Below are positions 8,785-40,700 of a stretch of 64,000 nucleotides of DNA, one piece after another. Where the stretch lies: contig JAYZAL010000066.1 of assembly GCA_036339735.1 (NCBI GenBank), positions 32,001 to 96,000 on the forward strand, given 5' to 3'. Origin of the DNA: Candidatus Poribacteria bacterium (GTDB lineage Bacteria > Poribacteria > WGA-4E > UBA9662). The notes under the pieces were generated by a model, which saw only the letters and a program-made list of their open reading frames with translations, made no database searches and was not told the origin of the DNA. The translations under genes were made by a program, and so were the position numbers. The number at the start of each line of letters is the position of its first letter. Positions within the stretch are counted from its first letter, which is position 1.

Positions 8785-8786
8785 TA

Positions 8787-15281: not shown

Positions 15282-18200
15282 TTGGGTAAAAGGGGCTTGA
15301 GTTGCAAGGATAGCCAAGCGAGTATCAGTGTGCAGGCACCAATCACGGGAATTAGTCTAGGTGTCATTTGGTGGTATGTTCTTTGTTCATGTATCAGCGT
15401 TTATGCTGCCGATTTTGCCATTCCACCGCAAGTTCTTGACGATACGACAGAAATAGACGCAGTTTTTAGTCCCAATGGTGATAACATCCAAGATAAGGTC
15501 GTCATTGTCTTTGAAATGGATGGTACAACCGGTGAGTACGAGATAATCATCGATGTCCATGGGCCAGGCGGTGTTGGTAAACCTGACGGTCAGTTCAATG
15601 TAGATGATGACTGGTCAGTTTTAGGTAAGTTTGGCCCTGGTGTAACAATCAATGATGCCCCTAAGCGTTTTCGTATTGAATGGGATGGAAGAGATAGTGT
15701 TGCTGGAACAGCTAAAACTGTAACTGATGGAAACTATCAACTGCGCCTGCAAGTTGACTTTTTTCAGAATGAAATATTGGATCCAATACAGGATTCACAC
15801 TCCCAAATCTTTCCTATAATTGTTGATACAGAATCACCACAAACGTCGGCTAAGTTGGAAAGAACAGGCTTCTCACCCAATGGTGATGGTAACCGTGACC
15901 AACTACCTATTAACTATGTTTTAGGAGAACAATTATCCGGCCTGGAACTATTAGTTCCAAGCCATTCATCAATTCAATTATCGGACCTAGCAGCAGGCAA
16001 TCAAATTTTCAACTGGAATGGACAAGACGGGCTTGGAGCTGTTCTGCCAGACGAGTCTTACAATCTTCAATTAAGAAGTTTGGATTTAGCCGGTAACGAA
16101 AGTATCGTTTCTCTAGGGCAGATTTGGCTTGATACAAAAAAACCAACTATCAGCCAAATAATTCCATCTCCTGATGCCAAAGTGAATACTACAGTCAATG
16201 AGTTGATAGCTACCTTTGAAAGTGGAACAGGTAGTCAGATTGACTTTGATAACTCGATTATAAGTTTGACTCATCTTGATGAAACTATTCAAAATGGGAC
16301 TGTTAGTTATGAGAATATGACCTTGAGGCTAACATTAGAGAATTCTCTTAATTTGGCTTCAGAGAATGGGCTTTACACAGTGAATGTGCAAGCTGTTGAC
16401 CTCGCGGGAAATAGGGAAGTCTCAACTTTCAATTTGGTTTTTGATACGATTCAACCATCAGTACTACAAATTCGTCTCGATGAAGACAACTTGCGTGACC
16501 GAGTTCATGTTAATAGTAGTATCGGTTATATTGAGGCAGACCTAAGTGATAATCTTTCTGGATTAGATTTGGCAAATTCACTTCTGCAATTGTCAAAATC
16601 AGGTACAGTTGTAGATGGAGTTCAGTTACAGATCGATACCGATACAATTCGTTTTCAACTTAGCCGAGCACTTAAATCAGACGGGAGTGATGATGGAGCT
16701 TACGAAATCCTGCTTACGGTATTTGACACAGCGGGTAACAGTCAGGTACAAACACATCCGCTAGTTTACGATACTACAGCCCCTACTTTGATAGGAACAA
16801 ACCCTCCAGATCTTTCACAAGAAAAAGTCCGTATAGATCAAGCTGTAGCAACAATTGAGCTCACCTTTTCTGACCAAAACGATAATGTTGTTACTTCTGG
16901 GCTAAGCTTTGATGAGACGACAGTTTTTGTCACTAAAAGTGATGGAACGTTAGTCTCTACAATTAAGCAGGTCACTTCTCCTTCTAATTTAGAGCTACGC
17001 TTTTCTAGTTCTCTGACTGCTGGTGATTATACACTTTCATTCGTAGCAAGCGATAAAGCAGGCAATCAAGGAAAAGAAACTAACTATCCTTTCTATATCG
17101 ACCTGAGGGTACCAGAAATACAATTCACGCCAAATAACGTACCATTGGCTACATTAGAAGCAGTCTCAGCTCAATTGATAAACTATACTGGGATTGGTTT
17201 AGATCTGGTTAGGTCTAGCCTACTAGTTCAAGACGTTAGTGGTAATACGATTCCATCCCAAAAGACCGAGATAGTTGATCAATCTCTAGTTTGGCATATC
17301 AAAAACCAGTTACCAAAAAATGGAAGTCAAGATGGAAATTACATAGCCACGGCCAACTTTGCTGATTTTGAAGGTAGAACCTATACAGCGAGTTCGACCT
17401 TGACTGTTGATACGCTACCACCTACTATTGACAAGACCATCCCTGTTGATGGTTCGAAAGTCTCTGTCCTAAAAGAAGTTGACGTATTCCTAAACGACAA
17501 TTTAAGTGGAATTGACTTTAGTCAAACCGAAGTCTTGTTAAGTTCAGACGGTGGTACAATTTCTACCACAAAAAGTGATAATGGAGACAATCACATAAGA
17601 CTCACCTTTACTGACCGCCACGCGGACGGGTCGGCGGATGGTTTGTATACGGTTGGTATCACGGCAGTTGATTTAGCCGGAAATATTAGTGGGACTCAAA
17701 ACGTGTCCTTCTACCTAGTCACACAAAAGCCGGAAATTATTTCGGTTACACCGTCTGCTAACTCTCGAATCAATCATTTATCTACAATTTCTGCATCATT
17801 GTTGGATCTTAGTGGAAAGGGTATTGATTTTGATAAAACAACCATTACTTTGTCCAATTCTAGCGGTGAAGTTCTGGGTGGAACCTCATTAACACATACT
17901 GACTCACAGATCACATTAACAGGAATAGAATTACCTACAGATGGATCGGCAGATGGTATATATACTATGTTAATCACATTAGTAGATAAACTTGGTTCCA
18001 CAGCAGAAAAGCTGCAAAAAATTCACTATGATACGCAACCACCTGTCATGAGGACAAGCAATCAATCCTTCGAGAGACTATCAACAGACCAGGTGTCAGT
18101 TAGCTTCGAGGTAGTTGATTCCGGCAGTGGAATTGATATTACTAACTCTAGCCTACAGCTATCCAATACCGATGGAACAGTAGTCCCAGGCCAGTTTAGT

Positions 18201-21200
18201 TATGATGGTACAGCAAACCTCAGCTATAAGTCAGCTAAACTCAACGCTAGTGGCATTTATATGCTCCAAGTTGTACTTACAGATCAGGCAGGCAACAGCA
18301 GCATACCATATACTTTTTACTACGCATACGGGGTAGAGCTAGCAGAAGTTGTTGAGGTCACACCCCGTTTGACTAATAATTTGGAAGCGGTCGTTGTCAC
18401 ATTCAAGAGCCAGCAAAGTCTCGATTTTGAGCAGACGATTCTTGAACTGATAGCTCCGAATCAGCAAGTTGTTTCTGGTGTTATGACCAACGATGGTCAA
18501 CAACTGATAACCTTCACTCCAAGCATACCATTAGCTGTTGACGGAAGCCAAGACGGCGCTTACGCATTAACAATCCAGCCATCAGTTATGGCCATAGGCC
18601 GCTCAGATAAAAAGTGGTCTGGTGAAATTACTTTTGACACACAACCACCCGAAGTAAAGTCAATATCTTATATTACTCAACCTGAACAGTTAGCGGTTGA
18701 TTTGCAAGGCACGGTTGTGGGTTTACCCACACAATTTCAGTTGGTGTTAGCTGATACTATTAGTGGAATTAATGGGCAACAAACAACAGCTCAGTTGATT
18801 TCGCCTACAGGACAAGTTAGTACCACAAAATCCTTGAAAGCCGATATAGAAACCAATGAATACTCTATTAATCTAAGCCTAAACAGTCAGCCTAAACCTG
18901 ATCCTTCCGTAAATGGCGACTATGTTCTTGAAATTATAGCCGTTGACCTAGCTGGTAACTCAACGACCTACAGTCGTAGTTTTACAGTCATGTGGGCTGC
19001 AGCTACGGTTTCATCGACTCAACCAGCATCGTTTAGTAAACTGAATGAGTTGCAACGAGTCGACGTGATGCTTGAAAATATGGCCGAAACTGAAATTGAA
19101 AAAATGGCCACTGTTCGATTAGTAAGTCCAGACAACTCCGAGGTCGCAGGGCGACAAGAAGTTGTAGGTACTATGGTAAGTTGGATATTGGATCAACCAC
19201 CACCACAAGATGGAACTGCCGATGGAGTCTATACAATTCAATCCACGGTTCTTAAGAATGATCAGGTTCTGCTATCCGAAAACACCACATTCCTATATGA
19301 TACCAAAAGCCCTCAAGTTGATAGCGTAGTACTGCAGACAAACGAATTGACTGAACTGATACCTAGTCAAGTTATAATGGTTACAGAACCATTCTCTGCC
19401 ATAAAAATTAAGATAGTTGATCAGCTAGCAGGGACTGATTTGACGACCTCAACAGTTAGCCTGAGAACTAGTGAAGGTTTAGGGATCGAACAAGGCCTAA
19501 ATAATGGTACTGGCGAAGTTCTTGAGGTCAAGAATAATGGTATTGATACAATTACGGTTGAATTTGCAGAATTGAAATTAACTGGTATCTACACATTAGT
19601 GATTACACCAAAAGACTTGGCTGGTAATACTGGCCATCCATCGCTTTATCAAATTAACCTCAATCTCTCAAAGCCAAAACTCACTTCAATCAAAATTAGC
19701 GACCGACTGGGACTTGTCACAGCAGAATTAGCTAATGCGACCGCAGAGTATTCTACCATCGAAGTTGTGGGTCCTAATGGGCAAGTTATTGGTAAAACCA
19801 CAGAGGACAATCTTAAGAAACAAATTACTTGGACTCCGACAAATCTTGCTCAGGACGGTACTGATGATGGGGTTTATACGATTACGGTTACACCAGTTAA
19901 CAAGCAAGGTATATCCGGCCAAGTATTAGTAAAGCGGTTCACTTATGACACCCAAGAGCCTGAGATTAATAATATTACTGCTGTCGATCTAACACAACCG
20001 GTCTCTTATCTATCGAACCCAACGTCACAAATTACAGCAACGGTCTCTGATCTGGGACCAGCAGGGCTCGACACTGAACAACAAAAGATAACACTAATTG
20101 ACAGTAGTGGGCAAACTGTCAGCGCATTTTTAACTCATGATGGTAGAGAAAATCTATACTTCACTTTCAATCCATCGTTCGCCAAAGATGGGACTAACGA
20201 TGGAGAATATCAACTAGCTATTAACTTAATTGATAAGGCTGGTAACAAAAAAGACTTCACACATTCGGTATTTTATGATAGTTCTCCACCAACGCTGACC
20301 GATATTATTCCAGGCGATGGGGCTCTTCTTAAGGGAGAAATTAATCAGGTTACAGTTAATTTGGCTGACAAAAACGGAAGTGGTATCGATTTCAGTCTAA
20401 CGACCATTTCGGTAACAGATACTGAGGGCAATTCGGTGAGTGGTCAAATGAGCCACGATGGAAAGTCTAAAATAATCTTTAAAATTGATGATCTAGCACC
20501 AAGTGGATCCTATTTGGTTCGAGTTGAAGTCGCCGATCGAGCTGGTAATCAAGCCATATTCGAAAGCGGATTCACAAATTTGTCTAATTTACTTGTAGCT
20601 TCCTCCACTACACCTGTAACACGTCCAATTGAAAAGGCATTCAACCGAAAAAAACTAGATTCAGTTACAGTTCAACTGCCAAAAGATGTTGGGATCCACT
20701 TGTCTACGTTACATTTGGTCGACAGTAGTGGTCAAATGGTCATGGGGTACCAAGACCGTAATGGTTCTTCAGATTTACAATATCAGCTCCAAAAGCCATT
20801 GAAGGACGATGGATCAGATGATGGGACATATACTATTGTTTTTACTCCTATTAGCGCTAATGGGCAAAGAGGGCAACCACAACTTATGAGTTTCGTCCAC
20901 GATACAGTAGAGCCAGAAATCGATGATGGCCAAATTCGGCTGAATGTAGCTCAAGCAGGAGTTAATAACTCACTAGTATCAATTCAGCTACCAGTGTATG
21001 ACCCATCTCCATCTTCGGGTATAGACTGGTTAGAACGTCCATTGCCAATCGTAGTAACGTTAGAATCTTTCGCAAAGGAAAATATTGCAGGTCGGATTTT
21101 AGTTGAATCTGATAAAGAGGAGGTGACTTTTGTCCTAAACAAACCTCTGGCGAGTGACGGCAGCCAAGATGGGAAATATAAGCTGAAAGTCGATGTTACA

Positions 21201-22292
21201 GACCAAGCAGGTAATGACTTGAATTGGATTTATGATTTTGATTACGATACTCGTCCCCCAGAGATCCAAACCTCAGATTTACAGATTAATGGGCAGCCAC
21301 TAATTGTTGATGCTAACCATATCGACTACCCATCAGTTGCAGGTCGTGGTGGTTCAGTTATCATAACAGCCAAGATAAAGGATAGTGACGGTTTAGGGGT
21401 AGACTTATCAACTTCCAGCATAAATGTTATCTCACCAAGTGGTGAGGCCATAACCGGAGGCCTCACACAGAATGGAATTGATTTTCTGGTTTTTAGCTCA
21501 TCGCAATTATTGCCCAATCAAGGATACTATAGGGTGGTGATTACAAGCGTCGGGTTAGATCCTCAGAACTTGGGTTTCCAGCCGACAAAGACAATTAGTA
21601 CTGAATTCCTCTATGAGACATTACCACCGGTTGCAAGCCTCACTGATAGTGGTAAAGATAAGATTGAAGAAGGAGATGCCTTAACACTAAAAGGTGTAGC
21701 TTCAGATCCTGATAGTCAAGAAATACCAGCTTCTGGTGTTAGTCGTGTTGAGATTGTTGGTACAGGACCCGACGGAAAAGATATAGAACCGGCTGTAGCG
21801 GTGGACATGAGTAAAGGTGGTAGTAACCAATGGAGTAGCTGGAAAATTGATTACTTACCACCTAAATCTGGTAGATATGTATTGAGTGTTCGAGTTTATG
21901 ATAAAGCGGGTAATGCCGAAACTTATGAAAAGAAAGATGTTACTTTCACAGTTTCACTTGGATTCAAAGGTGAGACATTTTGTTGGCCTAATCCCGTATC
22001 GTTGTCTGCGTCATCTAGTGGTTCGGTGGCACATATATCTTTCGATCCTAATATAGCCAGTAATGATACAGCTAATCTGACCCTTAGTGTTTACGATTTA
22101 TCTGGTGACTTAGTCTATCGATATAAAGAACCTGATATAAAACCAGGTAGACAAGATACTACACTCAAATGGAATTTAAGTAATTCTTCTGGAAGTAAGG
22201 TCGCACGTGGTATTTACCTTTTTCGACTGGAAATAGTAAATGGCGTGGATGAATCATCCAATACGGTTGGTAAAATCCTAGTAGTGGAATAA
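15282..22292 (+). CDS. Giant exported Ig-like repeat protein (2336 aa) with FlgD-Ig/T9SS-CTD-like termini
   Basis: Signal-like N-terminus, two FSPNGD..D units, many ~100-aa repeats (SGID...DGS.DG.Y....A.D.AGN...F.YDT.PP), and C-terminal CWPNP..SVYDLSG..LKWNL....GSKVARGIYLFRL..GKILVVE. Confidence 0.8.
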   Translation: MGKRGLSCKDSQASISVQAPITGISLGVIWWYVLCSCISVYAADFAIPPQVLDDTTEIDAVFSPNGDNIQDKVVIVFEMDGTTGEYEIIIDVHGPGGVGKPDGQFNVDDDWSVLGKFGPGVTINDAPKRFRIEWDGRDSVAGTAKTVTDGNYQLRLQVDFFQNEILDPIQDSHSQIFPIIVDTESPQTSAKLERTGFSPNGDGNRDQLPINYVLGEQLSGLELLVPSHSSIQLSDLAAGNQIFNWNGQDGLGAVLPDESYNLQLRSLDLAGNESIVSLGQIWLDTKKPTISQIIPSPDAKVNTTVNELIATFESGTGSQIDFDNSIISLTHLDETIQNGTVSYENMTLRLTLENSLNLASENGLYTVNVQAVDLAGNREVSTFNLVFDTIQPSVLQIRLDEDNLRDRVHVNSSIGYIEADLSDNLSGLDLANSLLQLSKSGTVVDGVQLQIDTDTIRFQLSRALKSDGSDDGAYEILLTVFDTAGNSQVQTHPLVYDTTAPTLIGTNPPDLSQEKVRIDQAVATIELTFSDQNDNVVTSGLSFDETTVFVTKSDGTLVSTIKQVTSPSNLELRFSSSLTAGDYTLSFVASDKAGNQGKETNYPFYIDLRVPEIQFTPNNVPLATLEAVSAQLINYTGIGLDLVRSSLLVQDVSGNTIPSQKTEIVDQSLVWHIKNQLPKNGSQDGNYIATANFADFEGRTYTASSTLTVDTLPPTIDKTIPVDGSKVSVLKEVDVFLNDNLSGIDFSQTEVLLSSDGGTISTTKSDNGDNHIRLTFTDRHADGSADGLYTVGITAVDLAGNISGTQNVSFYLVTQKPEIISVTPSANSRINHLSTISASLLDLSGKGIDFDKTTITLSNSSGEVLGGTSLTHTDSQITLTGIELPTDGSADGIYTMLITLVDKLGSTAEKLQKIHYDTQPPVMRTSNQSFERLSTDQVSVSFEVVDSGSGIDITNSSLQLSNTDGTVVPGQFSYDGTANLSYKSAKLNASGIYMLQVVLTDQAGNSSIPYTFYYAYGVELAEVVEVTPRLTNNLEAVVVTFKSQQSLDFEQTILELIAPNQQVVSGVMTNDGQQLITFTPSIPLAVDGSQDGAYALTIQPSVMAIGRSDKKWSGEITFDTQPPEVKSISYITQPEQLAVDLQGTVVGLPTQFQLVLADTISGINGQQTTAQLISPTGQVSTTKSLKADIETNEYSINLSLNSQPKPDPSVNGDYVLEIIAVDLAGNSTTYSRSFTVMWAAATVSSTQPASFSKLNELQRVDVMLENMAETEIEKMATVRLVSPDNSEVAGRQEVVGTMVSWILDQPPPQDGTADGVYTIQSTVLKNDQVLLSENTTFLYDTKSPQVDSVVLQTNELTELIPSQVIMVTEPFSAIKIKIVDQLAGTDLTTSTVSLRTSEGLGIEQGLNNGTGEVLEVKNNGIDTITVEFAELKLTGIYTLVITPKDLAGNTGHPSLYQINLNLSKPKLTSIKISDRLGLVTAELANATAEYSTIEVVGPNGQVIGKTTEDNLKKQITWTPTNLAQDGTDDGVYTITVTPVNKQGISGQVLVKRFTYDTQEPEINNITAVDLTQPVSYLSNPTSQITATVSDLGPAGLDTEQQKITLIDSSGQTVSAFLTHDGRENLYFTFNPSFAKDGTNDGEYQLAINLIDKAGNKKDFTHSVFYDSSPPTLTDIIPGDGALLKGEINQVTVNLADKNGSGIDFSLTTISVTDTEGNSVSGQMSHDGKSKIIFKIDDLAPSGSYLVRVEVADRAGNQAIFESGFTNLSNLLVASSTTPVTRPIEKAFNRKKLDSVTVQLPKDVGIHLSTLHLVDSSGQMVMGYQDRNGSSDLQYQLQKPLKDDGSDDGTYTIVFTPISANGQRGQPQLMSFVHDTVEPEIDDGQIRLNVAQAGVNNSLVSIQLPVYDPSPSSGIDWLERPLPIVVTLESFAKENIAGRILVESDKEEVTFVLNKPLASDGSQDGKYKLKVDVTDQAGNDLNWIYDFDYDTRPPEIQTSDLQINGQPLIVDANHIDYPSVAGRGGSVIITAKIKDSDGLGVDLSTSSINVISPSGEAITGGLTQNGIDFLVFSSSQLLPNQGYYRVVITSVGLDPQNLGFQPTKTISTEFLYETLPPVASLTDSGKDKIEEGDALTLKGVASDPDSQEIPASGVSRVEIVGTGPDGKDIEPAVAVDMSKGGSNQWSSWKIDYLPPKSGRYVLSVRVYDKAGNAETYEKKDVTFTVSLGFKGETFCWPNPVSLSASSSGSVAHISFDPNIASNDTANLTLSVYDLSGDLVYRYKEPDIKPGRQDTTLKWNLSNSSGSKVARGIYLFRLEIVNGVDESSNTVGKILVVE

Positions 22293-27500: not shown

Positions 27501-28859
27501 TTATATCGAGTAAATCATTTTACTTGCTTCCTCGTATTCAGCTTGAAGTGGATCAGTTGATAAAAATAACTTTTGGTAAGGTTCATAAAGTTGGATATAA
27601 CTCCAGTTTACACCACAAGTAATTTTCTTCTCATTGCAGAGTTGCACAAAACGTCCCCGGAATTTAGCCCGAGTGGTTTCAGGTGGAAAACGCATGGCAC
27701 GTTCAATATTTTTGTCTTTACAAATTCGATGAACTAGACTTTCTCTTTCCAACTTATAGTATAATCCCTGATCGGTACGAACGTTGTGATACTGTAAGTC
27801 AAGCATCGCAACTTTCGCCGAATCCCAGTTCAAATTTCTTGTTTTTACATACTTATCAATCAGTTTCTTTTTGATAACCCAGTCAAGTTCTCTGTCTAAT
27901 TGCATTGGGTCATCGGACAAATACTGCAAGACATATTGCCAGTATTCCATTGTCTGGTCAGTGATAAAATCAGATTCCTCTTGCTCTAAATAGCGCTTGG
28001 CTGTGTAAAAGTATTCCCACTGTAATTCAACCGCAGATAAACGCTTTCCATTTTCGAGCTCGATTTTACGCGTGCAAGTTATATCATCTGAAATTTGTTG
28101 AATGGCTCGAACGGCATTTTTCAAATTGAAACTTTGCTCAATAAAACCATCTTCTATCATCCTCAAAATGATGTTGGTGGTTGCTATCTTCAAAAAGTTG
28201 GTGAATTCTGACATATTTGAGTCACCAACAATAACATGTAAACGACGATATTTTTCTCGATCTGCGTGAGGCTCATCTCTTGTATTTATAATGCCACGCG
28301 CAGTTGTAGTAGCGATTGAGATCTCCTCACGAATGTGCTGAGCCCTCTGTGAGATAGAATAACGACCATCTTTTTCAAGTTTAATCTTACCTGCGCCACT
28401 AAAGACCTGACGTGTGACAAAAAACGGTATTAACTTCGATGCCAATTGGCGAAAAGTAACTCGTCTGTCCATCAGATAATTTTCGTGGCAACCAAACGTA
28501 TTGCCGGGAGTATCTGTGTTGTTTTTGAAAACCGAAATAACTCCATCAAACCCATCACTTTTCATACGGCGTTCGGCCGAACGGGCTAATTGAGCCAGAA
28601 TTCGTTCACCTGCTTTATCATGAGCAACAAGGTCAATTACATCATCACATTCAGGTGTAGCATATTCCGGATGGCAACCTATATCTTGGTAAAATCTAGC
28701 TCCATTTTCGAGAAAAACATCTGGATACATTCGACCATGAATGATTTCACGGAACAAATACATAACAGTATTTTGAATTGACATAGGCTTTGAATTCGGG
28801 TGCTTAGGAGTACAGATGATTCCGTATTCTGTTTCAATCCCAAATATACGTCTTTTCAT
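27501..28859 (-). CDS. pafA: Pup--protein ligase
   Basis: RIFGIETEYG, FLENGARFYQD..HPEYATPEC, GCHENY, RDEPHAD..YRRLHVIVGDSN, LDLQYH. Lacks the Dop loop. ATGA overlap with prcA. Confidence 0.93.
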   Translation of the reverse strand: MKRRIFGIETEYGIICTPKHPNSKPMSIQNTVMYLFREIIHGRMYPDVFLENGARFYQDIGCHPEYATPECDDVIDLVAHDKAGERILAQLARSAERRMKSDGFDGVISVFKNNTDTPGNTFGCHENYLMDRRVTFRQLASKLIPFFVTRQVFSGAGKIKLEKDGRYSISQRAQHIREEISIATTTARGIINTRDEPHADREKYRRLHVIVGDSNMSEFTNFLKIATTNIILRMIEDGFIEQSFNLKNAVRAIQQISDDITCTRKIELENGKRLSAVELQWEYFYTAKRYLEQEESDFITDQTMEYWQYVLQYLSDDPMQLDRELDWVIKKKLIDKYVKTRNLNWDSAKVAMLDLQYHNVRTDQGLYYKLERESLVHRICKDKNIERAMRFPPETTRAKFRGRFVQLCNEKKITCGVNWSYIQLYEPYQKLFLSTDPLQAEYEEASKMIYSI

Positions 28860-29563
28860 GACAAAATTTCGGTTATATCCTCAACGGACAAGCGAGAAAA
28901 TTTGCGCCGATTTCTTTTTTGGTCCAAGACTGCGACCTCTAGCGTCGATGGGTTAATCGCATAACGATCTACCTCGTCGACGCTATCTTCAATAGAAATG
29001 AAGGTTTCTGTAGCCAATTTTACAGCAGCTGGTAAGCTAAGTTCAGCTTGATAGGTATCTTCCAGAATTTGAGAAATTTCATCGGACCTTCCACCAATTA
29101 CGGCGTAGTCTTTTTCTTCCCAAAATGTACCATCAAAAGAAATGTGGTAAATATTATTCGCTTGATTGCCTGTTTCAGCAACCTCACAAACCAATAACTC
29201 GACTTCTAAAGGTTTAGAATCCAACTGCCAAAATACACCACCGATATATTGGGAATAAACATTAGTCAACCACTTAGCCGTAACATCTTGCCTTGTGTAA
29301 GTTAGCCCTTTGATCTCAGCGTCGCGAATACCAACAAAACGGAGTGTTTCATACTCTCGATAAAGGCCGGTCGCAGCAAACCCAATCCGGTCATAGATCT
29401 CCGATATTTTAAAAACCGTTGACAATGGATTTTCCGCGACTAAAACGATTCCTTCTGCATACTCCAGAACAATTACTTCTTTGGCCTGATCAATACCTTT
29501 ATGGACAAAATCTGATTTATCCTGCATGATCTGATCTGGAGAAACATAGTACGGTGATGCCAT
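28856..29563 (-). CDS. prcA: 20S proteasome alpha subunit
   Basis: PYYVSPDQIMQDK, KISEIYDRIGFAA, KPLEVELLV.EV, LEVAVLD...RRKF; actinobacterial-type PrcA signature. Confidence 0.95.
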   Translation of the reverse strand: MASPYYVSPDQIMQDKSDFVHKGIDQAKEVIVLEYAEGIVLVAENPLSTVFKISEIYDRIGFAATGLYREYETLRFVGIRDAEIKGLTYTRQDVTAKWLTNVYSQYIGGVFWQLDSKPLEVELLVCEVAETGNQANNIYHISFDGTFWEEKDYAVIGGRSDEISQILEDTYQAELSLPAAVKLATETFISIEDSVDEVDRYAINPSTLEVAVLDQKRNRRKFSRLSVEDITEILS

Positions 29564-29630
29564 AAAAACAAATTCCTCGCAAGCTATCCTAGATTTCTTT
29601 AAGTCTCAATCTTCAGTAAGAGATTAATTG

Positions 29631-30464
29631 CTACTCACTTTCGGAAAGCGAGCTTTTATTTTCGCTAATCCTTTGAAAGAGATCAGTGTAAAAGGATTTT
29701 ATTATTTCTGGGGAGACTTCGGTAATGCCTGATTGATCGATAATACGAACAATCGGATAAATGTTACGAAGGAAATCTGGACCTGCGGTCCCAACATCTT
29801 CGTCTGCAGCATCCCATAGAGCATGGAGAACAGCATGAAGGGCTTCCCTTGACTTCATTTCAGGACGATACAATTTTTTAAGAGCTGACCGAGCATCCTT
29901 GCCGCCTGACCCCTCAGCATAGTAATCTACCTGTTCGTAACGCCCTCCGGTAATATCATATTTGAAAATACGCCCTATATTCTCTTTTAAATCATAGCCG
30001 GCAAAGATTGGTATGACAATCAAACCCTGAAGTGCCAAGGGTAAATTGGATTTCAGCATGTTTGATAAATAACTGGCTTTTCCCTCTAGACTTAGGTGAG
30101 ATCCTTCGACTTTCTCGTAGAACTCCACCTGAGTTTGAAAGAGTTTAGCCATATCAATACATGGACCAGCAACACCTGCAATAGCAATAGCCGAATGTGT
30201 ATCAACCTCATATACTTTTTGGACCCTACGTTCACCAATTTGGAATCCTCCAGTTGCTTGACGATCTCCTGCTACAACGACACCGTCAGCGTAAATTAGA
30301 GCTAGGATCGTTGTGCCTTCTAAGAATTGTCCCACCTCGCCACGAGGCTGAGTAGATTCTATAAACTGAGCGTTAGTAGAAAAAGATTGTAACAAGCTAG
30401 GTTGTCGACACTTCAGAATTTGAAGAAGATCATTTGTTATGTATTCTGACTGATCGGGCGCCAC
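29631..30464 (-). CDS. prcB: 20S proteasome beta subunit (50-aa propeptide)
   Basis: G|TTILAL nucleophile, VVVAGDRQAT, K33-like RRVQKV, GSGG, DAADEDVGTAGPD. The GTG start shares 1 nt with the pup stop. Confidence 0.95.
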   Translation of the reverse strand: MAPDQSEYITNDLLQILKCRQPSLLQSFSTNAQFIESTQPRGEVGQFLEGTTILALIYADGVVVAGDRQATGGFQIGERRVQKVYEVDTHSAIAIAGVAGPCIDMAKLFQTQVEFYEKVEGSHLSLEGKASYLSNMLKSNLPLALQGLIVIPIFAGYDLKENIGRIFKYDITGGRYEQVDYYAEGSGGKDARSALKKLYRPEMKSREALHAVLHALWDAADEDVGTAGPDFLRNIYPIVRIIDQSGITEVSPEIIKSFYTDLFQRISENKSSLSESE

Positions 30465-30685
30465 TACTCTCCTCCCCGCTGAACGTAACTTTCTATAAAT
30501 TCCTCATATTCTTCTTCTAAGATTTCATCAATTTCGTCCAGAAGCCGATCTAAATCATCTTTGATTTCTTCACCTTTTTCCGTAACCTCTTTATTTGGTT
30601 GAACAGACTCAGTGTCTTGAGTTCCTTCTTGCTCTGCACTTTGCGTGTTTTTTTCTTCTTGTTCTTTATTCTTATCAGGCGACAC
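30464..30685 (-). CDS. pup: Prokaryotic ubiquitin-like protein Pup (73 aa, C-terminal GGE)
   Basis: GTG start behind an AGGAGG RBS. Acidic, disordered N-terminus, then DLDRLLDEIDEILEEEYEEFIESYVQRGGE. Confidence 0.95.
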   Translation of the reverse strand: MSPDKNKEQEEKNTQSAEQEGTQDTESVQPNKEVTEKGEEIKDDLDRLLDEIDEILEEEYEEFIESYVQRGGE

Positions 30686-30704
30686 CTTGATACCTCCTAT
30701 TTGG

Positions 30705-32246
30705 TTAAGATGAATCACTAACGGGCTCAACAGGATCATCAGAAGAAGAAAGTTTCTCGACCAATTGGCTGACACTATTACAATTGAGCAAATCACCAAC
30801 TAAGGCTTTATTACCAAAATGCGGTCGATCCATAAAGATTTTATTCAACGACGAACCTTCAGTAGAAAAGACAATCGAATTCCAACTTACGCTGTGTATA
30901 TCCGCACTAAACTTTCTTAAGCATGTGCCACGAAAATAAGCTCGAGTATCAGTTGGTGGACAGGTCATCGCGTGAATGATTTCTTCTTGGTCAACAACTG
31001 AAATCACTTGATTGTTTTTGACCAAATGATGGTATAAACCTCTATCGGAACGTAAGTCGTGATACTGTAAGTCGAGCATCTTAATACGCGAGTCTTTCCA
31101 ATTTAGATTGTGTCTTTCTATATATGCCGACATCAGTCGGAGCTTGATCACCCAATCTAAATGCTTGTCTAACTGCATAGGATTACTTTCTAATTGATTT
31201 AAGACAAAATCCCATTTAGATAAAATATCTAGGTCTGTAGAGCTTAGTTCGTCTGTGGAAAAGCTTCGCCGGACTAAATTTAGATAGTCCCGTTGTAACT
31301 CAATTGGCGATTTTTCTTCGCCTGATTCTAGTCTCAGTTTTTTCTGACAGGTTAAGTCTCTAGAAACCTTTCTAATGTCACTAACAGGATCCATCAACTT
31401 GAACTGACACTTCAACGCACCAATCTGAATCAGTCTCAAAACCAGCGAGGTAATCCCAATTTTTAGGTATATTGAAAATTCCGACATGTTGGAATCGCCA
31501 ACAATCACATGAAGGCGACGGTAGATTTCATTATTGGCGTGTGGTTCATCTCTTGTATTGATAATTGGTCGAGAAACCATCGTACTTAGCCCAACTTCGG
31601 TCTCAAAGAAATCGGCTCGTTGGGAAATCTGAAAATCAACTGGTTCAGCGCCATTTTCAAAACCGATCTTTCCACTTCCTGCAATAATTTGCCGTGTGAC
31701 AAAGAAAGGTGTTAGTGCATCCGTAAAATCCTGAAACTCAATTTCTCTTGGTACAAGATAATTTTCGTGGCTACCATAACTATGTCCTTTGTAGTCGGTA
31801 TTATTTTTATAAATGAGGATTTCTTGTTCTGCTGGTAGGGTAGCTTCAGCCTTTTTACGTGACGAATCAACAATTAGATCCCCTGCTTTTTCATATATGA
31901 CTACATCTCTTGCCGTAGTACATTCTGGTGTGCAGTATTCTGGGTGGGCATGATCAACATAATATCTACCACCGTTGATAAGAATATCGTTAATAACAGT
32001 GTTATCTTCGTCTTTTGGTACGCCATTCCCACCTTCATAAACAAAGCCCCGGGCATCAGTTAGAGGTGACTCTTGATCATAATCCCAATAAATGTCATTC
32101 TCAGTTGACTCGTCAGCCGATTCTACATCTTTTTGACTATAAGAACTTACGACCAACATAGAGGCCGCAACAGGATCTTGTTCCTTGACGTTTCTCACGG
32201 AAATCCCATATTCAGTTTCTGTGCCAATTATTGAAGGGAAACTCAT
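30705..32246 (-). CDS. dop: Pup deamidase/depupylase
   Basis: IGTETEYGI, Dop loop WDYDQESPLTDARG, NGGRYYVDHAHPEY, YKNNTD.KG.SYGSHENY. Start taken at the ATG 1 nt after the arc stop. Confidence 0.93.
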   Translation of the reverse strand: MSFPSIIGTETEYGISVRNVKEQDPVAASMLVVSSYSQKDVESADESTENDIYWDYDQESPLTDARGFVYEGGNGVPKDEDNTVINDILINGGRYYVDHAHPEYCTPECTTARDVVIYEKAGDLIVDSSRKKAEATLPAEQEILIYKNNTDYKGHSYGSHENYLVPREIEFQDFTDALTPFFVTRQIIAGSGKIGFENGAEPVDFQISQRADFFETEVGLSTMVSRPIINTRDEPHANNEIYRRLHVIVGDSNMSEFSIYLKIGITSLVLRLIQIGALKCQFKLMDPVSDIRKVSRDLTCQKKLRLESGEEKSPIELQRDYLNLVRRSFSTDELSSTDLDILSKWDFVLNQLESNPMQLDKHLDWVIKLRLMSAYIERHNLNWKDSRIKMLDLQYHDLRSDRGLYHHLVKNNQVISVVDQEEIIHAMTCPPTDTRAYFRGTCLRKFSADIHSVSWNSIVFSTEGSSLNKIFMDRPHFGNKALVGDLLNCNSVSQLVEKLSSSDDPVEPVSDSS

Positions 32247-32247
32247 T

Positions 32248-34044
32248 TTACAAGTAAGCTCCACCTTTAACTGTCTTAATTTCTTTTTTCCTTTTTTCTG
32301 GCTCATCAGTCATGGCACGAATATTTACAATACGTTCTCCTTTACGTCCGGAAATTTTAGCCCAATCGTCAGGATTAGTGGTATTTGGCAAGTCCTCATT
32401 TTCCTTATATTCTTCCCGAATTGCTTGAACCAGATCATCGAGTTGAAGTCCTTTTTTACCCGATTCTTTTGATGAATCCTTTATTAATCTCTTAACTGCA
32501 GACTTTTTGGCACGGTCCACAATGTTACGAATCATAGCCCCACTAACAAAATCTTTGAAATATAACATCTCTCGTTCACCACGAGCATAAGTAACTTCAA
32601 TGAACTTGTTATCATCAGTCGTGGTATACATCTCGTTTATGGCAGCGAGGATTACACTGTTTAACGCTTTTTTTTCATCACCATCATATTCAGCGAGTAA
32701 CTCAGAATCAATTGGTATCCCGGCACACAAGTATTTGGAAAAAATATCTACAGCGTCGTCTTCAGTTGGCCGATCCACCTTGATTTTGACATCTAAGCGT
32801 CCAGGTCTTAGCACCGCTGGGTCGAGGAGATCTTGTCGATTGCTAGCACCAATTACTATGACGTCCCGCAACCCTTCAATCCCGTCAATTTCAGCCAAAA
32901 AGGTAGGGACAACGGTTGATTCCATGTCTGATGAAATACCCATACCGCGGGACCTGAACAACGAATCCATTTCATCAAAAAATATAACAACAGGAACACC
33001 TTCTTTCGATTTGTTTCGAGCTTTCTGGAATACCTCTCGGATTTTACGTTCAGTTTCCCCAACATATTTGTTGAGCAACTCTGGGCCTTTGACATTGATA
33101 AAGTACCCCCGTACGTCCTCACGGCCTGTTTTCTCTCGAATACGCTTGGCCAAGTTGTTCGCGATTGCACTTGCCATCATAGTTTTACCACACCCTGGTG
33201 GCCCATAAAGTAGGATGCCCTTGGGTGGTGAAAGTTCAAACTCCTTATACTCATCAGGGTAAAGATAAGGAGTCTCAATCGCATCTCGAATGTGTTCTAT
33301 CTGTTGGCTTTGACCGCCAATGTCATTGAAACTGATGTCAGGGACCTCTTGCAGCATTAAATCTTGTGCTTCGTACATCGGTAATTTTTCCATGAGTATG
33401 CCACTCACCCGATTCAATAAAACGGAATCCCCAAACCTGAGATCATCCGTATTTACCAGCGCGGAAACTTCGACTACACGCTCTTCATCTGCCCTCAGTC
33501 CAATCAATACTCGCTGCCTGTCAATGACTTTTTTCACTTTGACTACATCACCTCTAGAATCGAAGTGGCAAGTACCCACAACATTAAACGCGCCATTAAG
33601 AATTACTTCTTGGCCACGGCGTAATTGACTAACCTGAATTTCGGGATCCACGTTGACACGTTGTTTCTTTCCTAACATGTCGATATCAACAGTACCATCC
33701 TTGTTCTCAGAAAGAAAAACCCCATAGTGATTTGGTGGAGCACTCAGCTGTTCGACCTTTCCCTTCAGGTTTTGCAGATGTTCTTTGGTTTCTTGAAGAG
33801 CATTTGATAACTTCCGGTTCCGCCGGTGAGCCGACATTAATTCACGAGTCATCTCATACAAACGCAATTCAGTCTCATCCGTTGGCGGAGAATTTATTTG
33901 CTCACGCAGACTATTAATTTCATTCTGAAGGGACTCAATCTGGTATTCTTGTTGTCGAACAATATCTTCATCCGTATAGACTTCGTCAACAATAGGAGTT
34001 GGCATCGTTTCTGTTTTGTTTGACTTGTTGTCAGGTCTAGGCAT
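32248..34044 (-). CDS. arc: Proteasome-associated AAA ATPase ARC/Mpa
   Basis: N-terminal coiled coil, LSAPP, OB region, GPPGCGKT, VIFFDEMD, DLPNTTNPDDWAKISGRKGERI, C-terminal GAYL (GQYL-like). Confidence 0.96.
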   Translation of the reverse strand: MPRPDNKSNKTETMPTPIVDEVYTDEDIVRQQEYQIESLQNEINSLREQINSPPTDETELRLYEMTRELMSAHRRNRKLSNALQETKEHLQNLKGKVEQLSAPPNHYGVFLSENKDGTVDIDMLGKKQRVNVDPEIQVSQLRRGQEVILNGAFNVVGTCHFDSRGDVVKVKKVIDRQRVLIGLRADEERVVEVSALVNTDDLRFGDSVLLNRVSGILMEKLPMYEAQDLMLQEVPDISFNDIGGQSQQIEHIRDAIETPYLYPDEYKEFELSPPKGILLYGPPGCGKTMMASAIANNLAKRIREKTGREDVRGYFINVKGPELLNKYVGETERKIREVFQKARNKSKEGVPVVIFFDEMDSLFRSRGMGISSDMESTVVPTFLAEIDGIEGLRDVIVIGASNRQDLLDPAVLRPGRLDVKIKVDRPTEDDAVDIFSKYLCAGIPIDSELLAEYDGDEKKALNSVILAAINEMYTTTDDNKFIEVTYARGEREMLYFKDFVSGAMIRNIVDRAKKSAVKRLIKDSSKESGKKGLQLDDLVQAIREEYKENEDLPNTTNPDDWAKISGRKGERIVNIRAMTDEPEKRKKEIKTVKGGAYL

Positions 34045-34299: not shown

Positions 34300-34328
34300 A
34301 TTATAGCATTCGACATAATGAGTGTCAA
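34300..34328 (-). promoter_or_regulatory. Consensus sigma70 promoter for the arc operon
   Basis: Minus strand TTGACA-N17-TATAAT with extended -10 (TGcTATAAT). Confidence 0.82.
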
Positions 34329-34353: not shown

Positions 34354-34382
34354 TTGACGCGTTTCTAGACGTGTGATATAAT
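34354..34382 (+). promoter_or_regulatory. sigma70 promoter for the O-methyltransferase gene (back-to-back with the arc promoter)
   Basis: TTGACG-N17-TATAAT with extended -10 (TGaTATAAT). Confidence 0.75.
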
Positions 34383-35270: not shown

Positions 35271-37715
35271 ATGATAAGTTCACAATACCCATTTTTAAAC
35301 CGAATTCAAAGAGAATACAAGGCTGCCGCTGCCCACGTGTTCTTACTCCATCACAACGTTCACGATTTACTCTGGGATCGTCGCTACGGGCTTCTGCCGA
35401 CTCAGTATTTCTTGATGGAGCAACTAAATATCATCGGCTGTGACATCGTTCTTGGTTACATTCCCTCGCAAGGTATTATCTGGCCTCATATTGATCATTG
35501 GCGACAAATACAACACGCCTTGGGTTTAGAGGTAGAAAAGATAGAGTGGGACGATGGACCTCCAGATCCGTCAAAGCCAATTGGTCAATTTCGCCAGGAT
35601 GGTACTTTTATCGCAGAGCAACTGGGTCTAGTACGGGTTCAGGCTAAGATAGACTCGACCTATGGAAAGATATATTCAAACCCGAGAACCGTGTATGTGG
35701 GAGATACCAAGCGAGATATTCATCGAATAGAAATTCAACCTAGTAGTCAGCGACATATTTCAGCTGGCAAGCATATTCGTTTTCAAGCTATAGCTTTTGA
35801 TCAAATGGGAGAGAGAATTGGTATTCAGAACGCCAACTGGCAGGTAGAAGGAAATATTGGTCAAATTTCTAGAGACGGTGTTTTTGTAGCACAAAAAGGC
35901 GGTGAAGGATTCATTAAACTTCAAATAGGGAACCTTAACGCTAAAACCAACCGAATGGTTGTTCATCCTAGCGCAGCAGTCGAAATACATTTAGACCCAC
36001 CAAAAGACCCATTAGAAATTCGAAAGCCTCACCGTTTCTCTGTATCAGGCCGAGATGTAGGTGGTAATACTTTTAAGCTGCAAAAGGATATCGAGTTTGA
36101 AATTGTACCAACCCCTGAAGACAACACTCCCTATCACCCCATTAATCAACACGGATTTCATCGCGATAAAATCCATGAAGACCCCTTGATTAGCGATCGG
36201 TTACCTCCAGGAAAAGAGCTAAGCCAAAAACTGAGAGAACTCTTTGAGCAAAATCATTTTAAGGTTGGTTTAGTAGTTTACCAACTGGAAAAAATTGCCC
36301 CAAACTCTGACTTGCTAGCATTTGATGAAGAGTACCGATTTTTCGTGGATTCAATCCATCAATGGTCAGCAGATCTTGAAATGCGGTTCCGTAAACATAT
36401 TATTCTCATGGCAACTCAGAATTTAGCTGAGGTTCATCCTATGCTTTCTAACAATATCGAGATTCCTGTAGTTGAATTGCCATTTCCCGATCTCGAAGAA
36501 CGAAAGGAGTTAACTAAGCACATAGAAAGCCTATCACGTCTAAGAGCAGAAAACCAACGCTATCAGGGCGAGTTAATCCACCAAGTTCGTTTGGCAGATG
36601 ATTACTCACATGATCAGTTTGCTCGAGATACAACTGGCTTAAAATTGTTTGGTCTACACGACCTGGCTTTGAGAGCTGAGGAAGAGGGAATTCCGATTTC
36701 ACCCGAATTCGTAGCAGAACATCGCCGACAGAGTGTGTCGGTACATACGTCTGACATTTTGGAAGTTATGCCTACTCCTTATGATTTGTCTATCGTTGGT
36801 GGGCATTCCCACGTGGGGCGAATTCTTGAAAATATCATAACTGCTATACACCAGAAAGACCTAAAAAGAATACCTCACGGGGTTTTATTACTTGGTCCAT
36901 CTGGGACAGGCAAAACCATGATTGCCCAAATGTTGGCACGATACAGCGAATTGCCGTTTCTGCGACTCAAAAATCCACGAGAATGGGTGAGAACTGGGGC
37001 TACTGGGGATGCTAAAATTTATGAGAAAAAACTTACAGTGGCCTTAAACTTCATTTCAGGAATGCTGCCAGCAATTGTTTTTATTGATGATATTGACCAA
37101 ATTAGTGGACTCAGTGAAAGAGCTGGTAAACACAAAGACAACGATAGTATGTTGCCAGCAGAGTTAGTGAATTTGATTGCTGACCCTACAAAACATGGCC
37201 AGATTTTGTGGGTTGGCGCTAGTAATCGGCCGGATCTTTTGGACCCACTTTTTCGACGGCAAGGACTCTTTGAAGAAAGAATTATCCTCCTGCGACCAAC
37301 TGACGGAGAAAGAGCAGATATCTTACGTAAATTGTATCACAAGCACCAAATTAAACATCAAAATATAGATTTTGACGAAATGGATGAATACACAAGAAAA
37401 ATGACGGGTGCTGACATTGAACAAGTTGTCCGGCGAAGCTACACTTTTGCTAAAGCAGATGGGCTAGAAATTGTGAACAACGAATATCTACGAAAAGCAA
37501 TCTCAGACTTTGTACCACTTTATTCTGATCAAATTAACGAAGCTATTGGGTTGTTGGCAATGCGCGAGGCAACCTCACGTTCTATGCTTCCACAACGATT
37601 ACCCTACGAATTGAGAAAATTTGTAGCTGAAGAAGGGAATTATGCTGAATGGGGTATCGATAAATCTCAAATTAACCAACGCCTCAGAGAATTAGGGGAC
37701 GTCTTCAGTTTATAA
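35271..37715 (+). CDS. AAA+ ATPase with degenerate first module and inserted Ig-like repeats
   Basis: GVLLLGPSGTGKT, IVFIDDID, VGASNRPDLLDP, MTGADIE. Beta-rich insert at about 35580-36110. Confidence 0.82.
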   Translation: MISSQYPFLNRIQREYKAAAAHVFLLHHNVHDLLWDRRYGLLPTQYFLMEQLNIIGCDIVLGYIPSQGIIWPHIDHWRQIQHALGLEVEKIEWDDGPPDPSKPIGQFRQDGTFIAEQLGLVRVQAKIDSTYGKIYSNPRTVYVGDTKRDIHRIEIQPSSQRHISAGKHIRFQAIAFDQMGERIGIQNANWQVEGNIGQISRDGVFVAQKGGEGFIKLQIGNLNAKTNRMVVHPSAAVEIHLDPPKDPLEIRKPHRFSVSGRDVGGNTFKLQKDIEFEIVPTPEDNTPYHPINQHGFHRDKIHEDPLISDRLPPGKELSQKLRELFEQNHFKVGLVVYQLEKIAPNSDLLAFDEEYRFFVDSIHQWSADLEMRFRKHIILMATQNLAEVHPMLSNNIEIPVVELPFPDLEERKELTKHIESLSRLRAENQRYQGELIHQVRLADDYSHDQFARDTTGLKLFGLHDLALRAEEEGIPISPEFVAEHRRQSVSVHTSDILEVMPTPYDLSIVGGHSHVGRILENIITAIHQKDLKRIPHGVLLLGPSGTGKTMIAQMLARYSELPFLRLKNPREWVRTGATGDAKIYEKKLTVALNFISGMLPAIVFIDDIDQISGLSERAGKHKDNDSMLPAELVNLIADPTKHGQILWVGASNRPDLLDPLFRRQGLFEERIILLRPTDGERADILRKLYHKHQIKHQNIDFDEMDEYTRKMTGADIEQVVRRSYTFAKADGLEIVNNEYLRKAISDFVPLYSDQINEAIGLLAMREATSRSMLPQRLPYELRKFVAEEGNYAEWGIDKSQINQRLRELGDVFSL

Positions 37716-37741: not shown

Positions 37742-40700
37742 ATGAACCTAAAACATGCATTGCTAACCGGTATTGCTCTCCTATTAGGATTTTTATTTTA
37801 CCCTCGTTCAACGACCAACTACTCAATTGACCAATCCCTAATCTCACCTGCACGCACATTGGATAGTGAACCATTGCGCCTGACGGAACTGGTACGTAGC
37901 AACCCACCGTATTCAACTTTTGATCTAGGTTACATTTACAAAATTGATACGGCTCAGGTTGTATTTGGTAGCCCTGAGGATAGTGGCCCACGACAATTCG
38001 ATATACTGGTTAAAAATCAGTTAAATGATCGTTACAAGAGGATCTATTCCTTCATTGGAAATTCGCATGAGTATGGTTACCCGCTTCAATCTTTTCAAAC
38101 CCAGACAGAAGCTCGTTGGGTCCAAGTTGTCATCAATGACTGGTTCACCAATAAGCCACAATTACAAAAAGATAGATTTAGAGTTGGTACACGGTATAAG
38201 CGACATGGGCCGATCAAAGCTATAACAGCCACTCATAACACTGAATTCCTATTTCATCTAACCGATCTTTTGCCCAATACAAAATGGGCTGCAGCTGATG
38301 TGATCATTAATAACAAGGAAATAGAAAATGCATCAGTGGCCCCTGAATTTCGTACACCAACCTTAAATGGCCAATTTGCAACAGTCGCGGTAAAAATTGA
38401 CCTTGGCCGACGTCAGAACATCTATGGTACTCGTATTACTACAGCTGGGTCAGGTAATAACCTGAAGCGATATAGTTTGGAGATTGGTGGAAGATCAGCG
38501 ATCACTCGAGGAGATACTGAGATCAATGATTTTATCCCTTACTACACATCCGAAATACTTCCAAATGAAGTAGTAAAAGATACTTATCTTCCGGAGACGA
38601 GCCAGCGCGGGCGTTTTATAAAGCTGAAAATAGACGTCAACGATTGGTATGGTGAATATGCTGAAGTTAGCAATTTTGAGGTGTTTACTGACGAATATCG
38701 AATACTTTCTAGCCAATTATCTTCCGACCCTCAATACCGGAACTTCGAAGATTACACCACAAAGCGAGTAGAATATGAGAATTTGGGAGCTAATAATAAC
38801 CAGTACGCACCGCATCTCAAGCAAGGGTTTGCATATGATAAAGAAACTGGTGATTTTCAAAACCGTTATTTATTACCAAAAACAGTTTCAGAACCCGACG
38901 CTCCAAATTCTATAGCTTCAGGAGGTTTAGTTGATCAGCGCAGTTTCGCATATCATTACGACACAGTTGAAATCCAATTTGGTGCCATGCGCCCGATGAA
39001 TCCGAGAATGTTATACTGGGTACAAGTATCTTATCTTCAAAATAGTGATGGAAAACGAATCCAAAATTTATTGGCGGACCAATTCCTTCTCCACTCTGCA
39101 CTAGAAATCCCTACTAATGCAGCAAAAACATATACTTTTCAAATTCCGACTCAAGCTTATGCCAGTGGGCCAACTGCGGGTAAAGTTGCTCTTCGTTTCA
39201 ATCGATTAGCTGGTGCAAATGCGGTTGTCTCAACTGTCGCATTACTCGAGTCCTCACCTTTACGTGATGATAATTTGGCTAATAAAAAAGATGGTCAAAA
39301 AACTCACTTACTAACAAATCAAAAGCAGGGGCGATCTGTTCGAACAGATAATACTATCAAAATAGACGGTTTGGTAAATGACTGGCACTTGTTATACTCC
39401 CTAGTACCAATGTTTGCGGGTCAACGAGATAAACCATTACCAACTGAATACCAATCCAGAAAAGAATCACCAGTTCACTTATATACGCAATGGAATGATA
39501 ATAATCTTTATATTTTGCTCAACTTTAATCAGCCAGACGATGAAAAAAATCGGCTTATTAACCAGCATCATCGACTGCACTTATTCATCGATACGCAGCG
39601 CACTGCCTCTCCGGGCATGTACACACCAACGGATCATCATTTTACATTTGATTTATCTAATTTTACTGAGCCTGAACCAGAAGTCTATGTTTCGCAAGTT
39701 CATCATCACTTGGATGCTATTCCAGCTACTATCAATAACTACGAAGATATCTCAGTTGCCGTGCGATTAATTCCTTCCACTAATTCTGACTCAAACATTA
39801 AAGAAGGTTATACAATTGAGATCCAGTTGCCAAAGCAACTAGTTTTAAATCGGTTCAAAACCGGCGTTGGCTATTTATTTGGCCTAAACTATATTCTGAA
39901 TCGAACAGATTTAGAAAAAAAGAGGAACTTATCAAGCTTCGCTTTTACCTCCTCTGATTCAGATAGTCCACCTCAAAACTGGTTTCCCGTTGAAATGGTT
40001 AGCCGCGTCAGTGGTGAGGTAGATATTATGAGTCAAACGGGTCTAGAACCAATTGAAAAACTGGTTGTTGGCGACACGATTTCCTTATGTGTTTGGGATG
40101 CAGATCGAAATAACGACCCCACTTTGGAAGAATCAATTACTGTTCAATTGAAAAATAACCGCAGCGAAGTGTCGTCGACGCTGAGACTACCAGAAGTTGA
40201 TTATGCATCTTTTATCGATGATAACCAAAAACACAATGGAAGTCCTAATAGTTCGTTCTTCGCTGCCAAAATACTCACTGAGTTTGATGAATTCCCCCCC
40301 TCCAATAAAGCTAATATACTCACGACATCACTCCTTAAGGTCCGTGGTGGTGATGAAATTGTACTATCTTATACTGATCCCTATTTTGGTTACAACCAAA
40401 GAGACAAGTTGATTCAGAAAACAGCTCTCGTAGAAAAGGGCCACGATGGACGGGTTTACTTTGGTACATTTAATGGTGAAGTATTGGGGCAAATATCTAT
40501 TGGGTCTGAACTTTTTGTGTTCATTGAAGATGATGATTTACAGGAAAATTTAGTAAAACCGGTGTCGATTGAACTAAATATACTAGCACCAAAATCTTCT
40601 TATCGGTCGCTACAGAAAGAAATAGTAACAGTCTCCTTGGTTGAAACCGAGGGCAAGATACTGTATAGAGGACATATACCTACCATATATCAGCCAGTAG

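Follow-up and report, generated by a model that had tools for sequence, protein, structure and literature searches.

A Pup-proteasome operon in a marine Candidatus Poribacteria bacterium is one of two tag-proteasome systems in its genome

The 64 kb stretch of DNA analysed here, called the window throughout, is part of contig C66 of a Candidatus Poribacteria genome (4.32 Mb in 107 contigs, estimated to be 92% complete and 2.4% contaminated), and it carries a predicted operon for tagging proteins with the ubiquitin-like protein Pup and degrading them in a 20S proteasome. The operon occupies 27501-34044 on the minus strand and consists of six open reading frames (ORFs) arranged head to tail, in the order arc-dop-pup-prcB-prcA-pafA. 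The first, arc (or mpa; 32248..34044), encodes a proteasomal AAA+ ATPase of 598 amino acids (aa), which scores 683.9 bits with TIGR03689 (cut-off 504.75) and matches PF17758, PF16450 and PF00004. It is followed by dop (30705..32246), for a depupylase/deamidase of 513 aa with a Dop loop (TIGR03688, 575.9 bits; cut-off 492.3), and by pup (30464..30685), for an acidic tag of 73 aa ending in YVQRGGE (PF05639, 60.8 bits, cut-off 27; TIGR03687, 46.8 bits, cut-off 41.45). The 20S beta subunit (277 aa; TIGR03690, 271.4 bits, cut-off 191.9) is encoded by prcB (29631..30464) and the alpha subunit (235 aa; TIGR03691, 258.1 bits, cut-off 139.05) by prcA (28856..29563), and pafA (27501..28859) closes the operon with a putative Pup ligase of 452 aa (PF03136, 518.8 bits, cut-off 25; TIGR03686, 535.4 bits, cut-off 551.3). 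Five of these proteins pass their NCBIfam equivalog cut-offs; PafA scores 425.4 bits with the Dop model, 110 lower than with its own. The genes are tightly coupled, with a 1-nucleotide (nt) gap between arc and dop (TAA-A-ATG), a 1-nt overlap between pup and prcB (TAGTG) and a 4-nt overlap between prcA and pafA (ATGA), and pup starts with GTG, 7 nt after the ribosome-binding site AGGAGG. All six genes, their coordinates and these three junctions agree with a sequence-only reading made of the window beforehand.

The motifs which that reading reported as intact, namely Thr1 of PrcB, the GAYL end of ARC and the Dop loop, were all seen. In ARC, a helical region at the N-terminus bears a conserved basic patch, HRRNRKL, and is followed by two OB domains, an AAA module and the C-terminal GAYL; the protein matches the solved chain 7px9_A ('AAA ATPase forming ring-shaped complexes', 'Proteasome-associated ATPase') with 591 bits. 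In PrcB, a propeptide of 50 residues precedes Thr1, Asp17 and Lys33, and the catalytic residues are present in all 20 of the 20 Pup-type PrcB sequences compared. Dop has the loop insertion WDY..P..D.RGF in the alignment, as well as the invariant GxExE.G and D-x-x-H-x-EY motifs. PafA matches the Pup--protein ligase chain 4b0t_A with 339 bits; it lacks the Dop loop, stands last in the operon and has a near-neutral net charge of +2. The tag itself ends in GGE and has a net charge of -13 across its last 45 residues. As it matches Pup models only, is acidic and ends in RGGE, it is not a tag of the UBact type, which would match UBact models and end in R[TS]G[EQ].

The window operon is one of two complete paralogous tag-proteasome systems in this genome. 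Four genes of the Pup-ligase family were found in the genome, two of them on contig C73, where an ARC-like ATPase, Dop, UBact, PrcB, PrcA and a PafA-like protein are encoded in this order on one strand. The C73 tag is a 70-aa ORF ending in RTGQ, which scores 72.6 bits with NF033388 (cut-off 35) and 67.4 bits with PF20513 (cut-off 27.8); it lies between the Dop-like gene and prcB, and with the ATPase, the 20S subunits and the PafA-like gene it makes up a UBact-proteasome operon. The other C73 proteins fall under the equivalog cut-offs of the Pup system (ATPase 465.5, PrcB 172.6, PrcA 72.2 and PafA 346.2 bits), as is expected of a divergent UBact type. Identity between the two systems is 38% for the ATPases (367 BLAST bits), 42% for Dop, 36% for PafA, 37% for PrcB and 25% for PrcA, and no BLAST alignment of the window Pup to the UBact of the genome was found. 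Against solved Mpa-type chains the UBact-type ATPase reaches 348 bits, compared with the 591 bits of ARC. Because identity between the systems is low, as the 38% of the ATPases illustrates, and because the scores with equivalog models and solved chains differ so much, we read the pair as old and as no recent duplication in this lineage. The sequence-only reading had noted that some diderm lineages use UBact instead of Pup; Poribacteria have both. Five genes of the proteasome family are present in the genome, of which the fifth (C47, a 182-aa open frame) is one that we take to be HslV.

The pair is widespread in the phylum. Across the order, sampled with 41 genomes from 4 families and 10 genera, four Pup-ligase genes are present in 35, five in 4 and two in 2, and in a sample of 121 genomes from the phylum UBact was matched in 115, Pup in 116 and both in 113. 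A UBact match is missing in G005, G058 and G060 and a Pup match in G081 and G125, while G041, G042 and G043, which belong to other classes of the phylum, have neither tag and no ligase genes. The two systems do not reside on separate chromosomes: many of the phylum genomes are single closed contigs in which the loci lie far apart, and closed genomes such as G009 carry both tags on one contig (at 70.5 kb and 2.33 Mb). Both loci were retrieved from 16 relatives, and 11 of these have the two operons whole, with six genes each. In family f5 (four genomes, G044, G045, G108 and G111) all 12 genes are kept and are scattered over four loci, the Pup set as arc-dop-pup-prcB-prcA with pafA elsewhere and the UBact set as ATPase-dop with ubact-prcB-prcA-pafA elsewhere; G108 breaks after prcB. 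These loci (L094-L096, L099, L110-L112, L115 and L119-L126) thus have the Pup-type pafA and the UBact-type ATPase-dop moved apart. In the one non-Poribacteria genome examined, G127 (L037, titled uncultured Geobacter sp.), Pup together with UBact was not found: it has a Pup-type operon and no UBact match, and 2 weak UBact matches occur in 151 genomes of its phylum. Some smaller variations were also seen. A 1029-aa ORF splits the UBact operon of G089 between prcB and prcA (L093:6341-9431); G060 has a divergent third PafA-like gene (L127:86-2072, minus strand; a 661-aa open frame with 47% identity to Pup-type PafA); and in three genomes of one genus (G014, G029 and G032) a second PafA-like gene adjoins the Pup-type pafA.

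In a tree made with IQ-TREE from 24 sequences of 6 genomes, none of them actinobacterial, the four clades of ligases and deligases have support values of 98-100 each, and the full tree gives the same family groupings inside each of them. As the four supported clades repeat the same groupings, the trees fit a history in which both systems have been inherited vertically from the class ancestor. Whether the split between Dop and PafA came before or after that between Pup and UBact is a matter on which we make no claim, as the data do not discriminate: constrained trees under LG+G4 have log-likelihoods of -14007.7 when grouped by system, -14008.5 by enzyme and -14034.7 when crossed, and the C20 tree of the same 24 sequences gives the central branch a support of 12, with p 0.537 in the approximately unbiased (AU) test.

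How the proteins would act can be set out from the characterised actinobacterial system, on which the following steps are modelled. PafA would phosphorylate the gamma-carboxylate of the C-terminal Glu of Pup and join Pup to lysines of the substrate; deamidation of Pup should be unneeded here because it already ends in GGE. Dop would strip Pup from substrates; its further task, deamidating the tag, would arise in relatives with a Pup that ends in GGQ. The N-terminal helices of ARC would capture Pup, the substrate would be unfolded, and the C-terminal GAYL would dock on the 20S particle of PrcA and PrcB, in which Thr1 of PrcB would perform the cleavage. With two systems in one cell, we propose that Pup, being acidic, would bind in the grooves of Pup-type PafA and Dop, which are near-neutral or basic, and UBact, being basic, in the acidic grooves of the UBact-type enzymes, and that each ATPase would dock on its own 20S particle through its own type of tail, so that the cell would have two separately controllable degradation tags.

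Several differences between the two sets of proteins suggest such insulation. Across the last 45 residues, the net charge of the tag is -10 to -18 in Pup (n=19) and +1 to +5 in UBact (n=17), and PafA ranges in net charge from -2 to +7 among 15 Pup-type sequences and from -41 to -17 among 16 of the UBact type. All 19 of 19 Pup-type ARC sequences have [YF][LF] as their last two residues, whereas the tail of the UBact-type ATPase is ..V[IV] or G[AIV][IL], non-aromatic in 17 of 17. In the 50 residues before the OB domains, the median net charge is +1 in ARC (-1 to +3) and -3 in the UBact-type ATPase (-8 to 0). The Glu or Gln at the end of the tag differs among genera, with Pup and UBact varying independently; Pup ends in GGE in 11 and in GGQ in 8 of 19 orthologs. 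In this genome, Pup with its terminal Glu should be ready to ligate, and UBact with its terminal Gln would need its own Dop first.

The specificity of the ligases was also probed with a three-chain fold, in which Pup-type PafA and UBact-type PafA were presented together with UBact residues 26-70 as the scored partner. UBact scored 0.61 (median of three runs), against 0.00 for the best of 3 controls, on a tool with which that mark is reached by 116 of 157 solved complexes and by 2 of 215 mismatched pairs and whose calibration is unlike a three-chain job. The pLDDT (predicted local distance difference test) of the partner was 59-60, and contacts agreed between runs to at least 85%. Confident contacts of UBact residues 44-70 were predicted only with UBact-type PafA, in a groove at 355-397 and at the active-site residues 12-16 and 71-74; in the control that replaced the UBact-type ligase and kept Pup-type PafA, the score was 0.00. 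The 40 positions of the interface sum to a net charge of -9 in UBact-type PafA, compared with 0 in the Pup type. The swaps in the groove include E362/E363/W371 in the UBact type against T340/R341/K349 in the Pup type, and in the same columns the Dops have E/E/W (UBact type) against R/H/R (Pup type).

The host is supported as a marine diderm Candidatus Poribacteria bacterium. PafA was used to scan species-representative genomes, which gave 79 loci; the title is Candidatus Poribacteria for 74 of them, 'uncultured bacterium' for 4 and 'uncultured Geobacter sp.' for 1. The best relative, with 96% PafA identity, has the same genes beside the operon; the Poribacteria-like organism that had been suggested from the sequence is thereby borne out. 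So is the description of a diderm genome of low guanine-plus-cytosine (GC) content: GC ranges from 0.37 to 0.44 along the window, and the genome has 6 matches to the Omp85/BamA family. The same reading had also named SurA and LptD as encoded in the window, of which the first held and the second did not. A SurA-type protein is encoded at 9862-11256; for LptD, PF04453 has no match anywhere in the genome, and three large window ORFs tested for it gave no Pfam match. The diderm status is supported by the six Omp85/BamA-family matches even though LptD was not confirmed.

The operon is probably expressed. The stretch is held in 6 RNA-library runs from 4 studies (marine metatranscriptomes), and in the four runs examined, one per study, assembled contigs that match it with at least 95% identity reach 28, 28, 18 and 20 of 30 bins and span the junctions arc/dop, pup/prcB, prcB/prcA and prcA/pafA; the parts left uncovered in runs X18 and X20 are uninformative either way. 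Upstream of arc, by about 256 nt, lies a promoter-like site on the minus strand (34300..34328), TTGACA-17 nt-TATAAT with a TG extension. It is the sole 12/12 match among 22 sites, where shuffled sequences average 18 sites at 9/12 or better, and as a consensus match it is a candidate promoter for the operon. A divergent promoter-like site on the plus strand (34354-34382; 11/12 match) faces an O-methyltransferase gene.

Three other readings of these data have to be weighed. That the window operon, or the one on C73, is foreign, either through a chimera of binning or assembly or through recent transfer from Actinobacteria, might be suspected in an assembly of 107 contigs with 2.4% estimated contamination, the more so as the NCBIfam equivalog models fit the Pup-type proteins far more closely than those of the UBact type and the ATPases show the same gap against solved Mpa-type chains. 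Both contigs, however, match the genome in composition (GC 0.409 for C66 and 0.406 for C73, genome median 0.406; tetranucleotide correlation to the genome mean 0.995 and 0.994), single closed chromosomes of many relatives carry both operons, the gene trees track the families of the phylum, and the flank of the operon is syntenic among relatives, with ppdK next after pafA in 44 of 57 full-length related loci. A foreign origin is for these reasons very improbable, and composition, synteny and closed Poribacteria chromosomes with the same operon rule out a chimeric, contaminant or actinobacterial contig, on which the sequence-only reading would have fallen. It is a good deal less far-fetched, though still unlikely, that Pup serves mainly as a reversible regulatory mark, or in the recycling of amino acids during starvation as proposed in Mycobacterium smegmatis, with most tagged proteins left undegraded. 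Active removal of the tag would fit the retention of Dop beside a Pup that already ends in Glu, and the available text of Hecht et al., 2020 (PMC7947786) cites a role of the system in nitrogen starvation of M. smegmatis. On the other hand, the 20S particle is complete and predicted to be catalytically intact, ARC has its docking tail, and both appear to be translationally coupled to the tagging genes. We thus favour a Pup tagging-and-degradation operon native to a non-actinobacterial genome, as the sequence-only reading had proposed and as the family scores, the motifs and the titles of the relatives support.

The remaining question is whether the two systems are kept apart. They might share 20S particles, ATPases, tags or substrates, the duplication amounting to redundancy or dosage. 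All their components are homologous, at 25-42% identity between systems; the catalytic motifs are identical across all four ligase-family proteins; both beta subunits, of the Pup and the UBact type, are predicted to be active; G005 and G058 carry the Pup operon only; and the charges of the ATPase helical regions overlap. Such sharing nevertheless seems rather unlikely to us, if the least unlikely of the three alternatives. The tags are opposite in charge and cannot be aligned by BLAST, groove residues co-vary with the type of tag in both PafA and Dop, the ATPase tails are categorically distinct (19/19 against 17/17), and the predicted fold put UBact on its own ligase only, with 0.00 when only the Pup-type ligase was left. 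All 12 genes, moreover, persist where the operons have been broken up, which argues against simple redundancy. For two insulated ubiquitin-like tagging-proteasome pathways per cell, each with its own ligase, deligase, unfoldase and 20S particle and kept since the class ancestor, we consider the odds to be even. The explanation that we find best overall, a native and intact Pup-proteasome operon that is one of two systems, with insulation at those even odds, we hold with a probability of roughly 0.8.

Several observations weigh against that explanation or parts of it. The window PafA stays 16 bits below its equivalog cut-off, and contigs from RNA libraries may include carried-over DNA and cannot show a single transcript or its ends. 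Two nearly complete genomes, G005 (96%) and G058 (90%), have the Pup operon only, with two ligase genes, and in G060 (95% complete) the Pup operon is accompanied by a third ligase-family gene, with no UBact match, so that the second system is either dispensable or lost at times. The role of the UBact-type 'PafA' (L005:11356-12801, on C73) as a ligase is suggested mainly by its operon position and the fold, because it scores 346.2 bits with the PafA model and almost as much, 337.5 bits, with that of Dop, and because it retains an insert of about 20 residues (YRDWGEPPHNGG) that partly resembles a Dop loop. The difference in charge between the helical regions of the ATPases is modest and overlapping. 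The fold expresses the confidence of a model, by which the solved PafA-Pup complex (4bjr) may be partly remembered, and it probed one direction of specificity, that of UBact and not of Pup against both ligases. Lastly, insulation is inferred here from sequences and a predicted fold.

Besides the operon and the SurA-type gene, the window encodes cyclophilins, Mfd, proteins with type IX secretion sorting domains and RNase P RNA. Divergent from the operon, an 814-aa protein is encoded at 35271-37715 on the plus strand, in which the only domain recognised is an AAA module at the C-terminus. This ATPase and the O-methyltransferase were considered as parts of the operon and rejected, as they adjoin it in only 7 and 2 of 57 loci. 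Folding catalysts are unusually concentrated at 1357-2563 and 7450-15056 (plus strand), with two cyclophilin genes and, beyond mfd, a row of four genes whose products have parvulin/SurA-type rotamase domains, one of these being a protein of 1267 aa. Giant proteins of 2336 and 2048 aa are encoded at 15282-22292 and 37742-43888 (plus strand), and in the 2336-aa protein many Ig-like domains are accompanied by a type IX secretion sorting domain (CHU_C/FlgD-Ig) at its end. At 49611-49970 on the plus strand lies an RNase P RNA of bacterial class A (294.1 bits), and no tRNA genes were found across the whole window. At 56388-61354, ORFs of 320, 735 and 521 aa have no Pfam match at E up to 0.01, and one of them may be what was earlier taken for LptD.

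Taken alone, the window Pup operon is an ordinary member of a known system, already annotated in databases for this phylum, and it adds one phylum to the known list. What is new here is the presence of two complete, anciently diverged tag-proteasome systems in one genome. A lineage that keeps both is a natural experiment in tag specificity, with the grooves of PafA and Dop and the tails of the ATPases as the places to look, and the pair bears on the need for two degradation signals and on the relationship between Pup and UBact. If the two are indeed insulated, they would be a natural pair of orthogonal systems of the Pup family, with specificity set by charge-complementary grooves and docking tails. 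The charge-swap positions are hypotheses that can be mutated directly, and orthogonal tag-ligase pairs could be put to use where proteins are to be degraded selectively in bacteria.

Published accounts of Pup operons outside Actinobacteria go back to 2008 (Iyer, Burroughs & Aravind, PMC2588565). Sporadic occurrences of Pup, and of PafA/Dop with proteasome genes as neighbours, are reported from Nitrospirae, Verrucomicrobia, deltaproteobacteria and planctomycetes in the available text of that paper and of Hecht et al., 2020 (PMC2588565, PMC7947786). The latter, in the same portion, adds further phyla, proposes transfer from Actinobacteria and retains one Dop and one PafA per genome, and because one of each was kept, a second Dop/PafA pair would have been invisible to it (PMC7947786). 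Poribacteria go unnamed in those portions of the two papers, where Pup is sporadic outside Actinobacteria, whereas here the Pup operon is near-universal in its class (PMC2588565, PMC7947786). A literature search, which did not cover the original UBact paper or the relevant part of Cavalier-Smith, 2020 (PMC7203096), found no paper relating Poribacteria to Pup, pupylation, the proteasome or UBact.

Compared with the UBact loci of Gram-negative phyla, the C73 operon is a typical member, with an RTGQ tag and the same gene order, whereas the tag of the window is Pup. UBact is said to have been named in 2017 by Lehmann, Udasin, Livneh and Ciechanover (reportedly in BBRC 483:946), who reportedly also listed Poribacteria among the candidate phyla that bear it, and we know of no biochemistry on UBact. 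Nearly all understanding of pupylation comes from Actinobacteria, which have a single tag. The actinobacterial Pup system, as in Mycobacterium tuberculosis and M. smegmatis, has the same six genes in the same order, and likewise a Mpa-type ARC with a GxYL tail, a Pup ending in GG[EQ], a PrcB with a propeptide before Thr1, a Dop with the Dop loop and a PafA without it; solved structures include those of Corynebacterium glutamicum PafA (PDB 4b0t, 4bjr) and of Dop (4b0r). Unlike the actinobacterial hosts, that of the window is a diderm poribacterium of about 41% GC with a second, UBact-type system beside Pup. In the window pafA is joined to the operon by the 4-nt overlap, whereas in M. tuberculosis it sits apart, with pafBC. 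Rhodococcus erythropolis has duplicated 20S operons, which are close paralogs within one Pup system; the two sets of the genome studied here, in contrast, are only 25-42% identical, and neither borrows from the other its tag (the two being unalignable), its ATPase or its pair of ligase and deligase genes.

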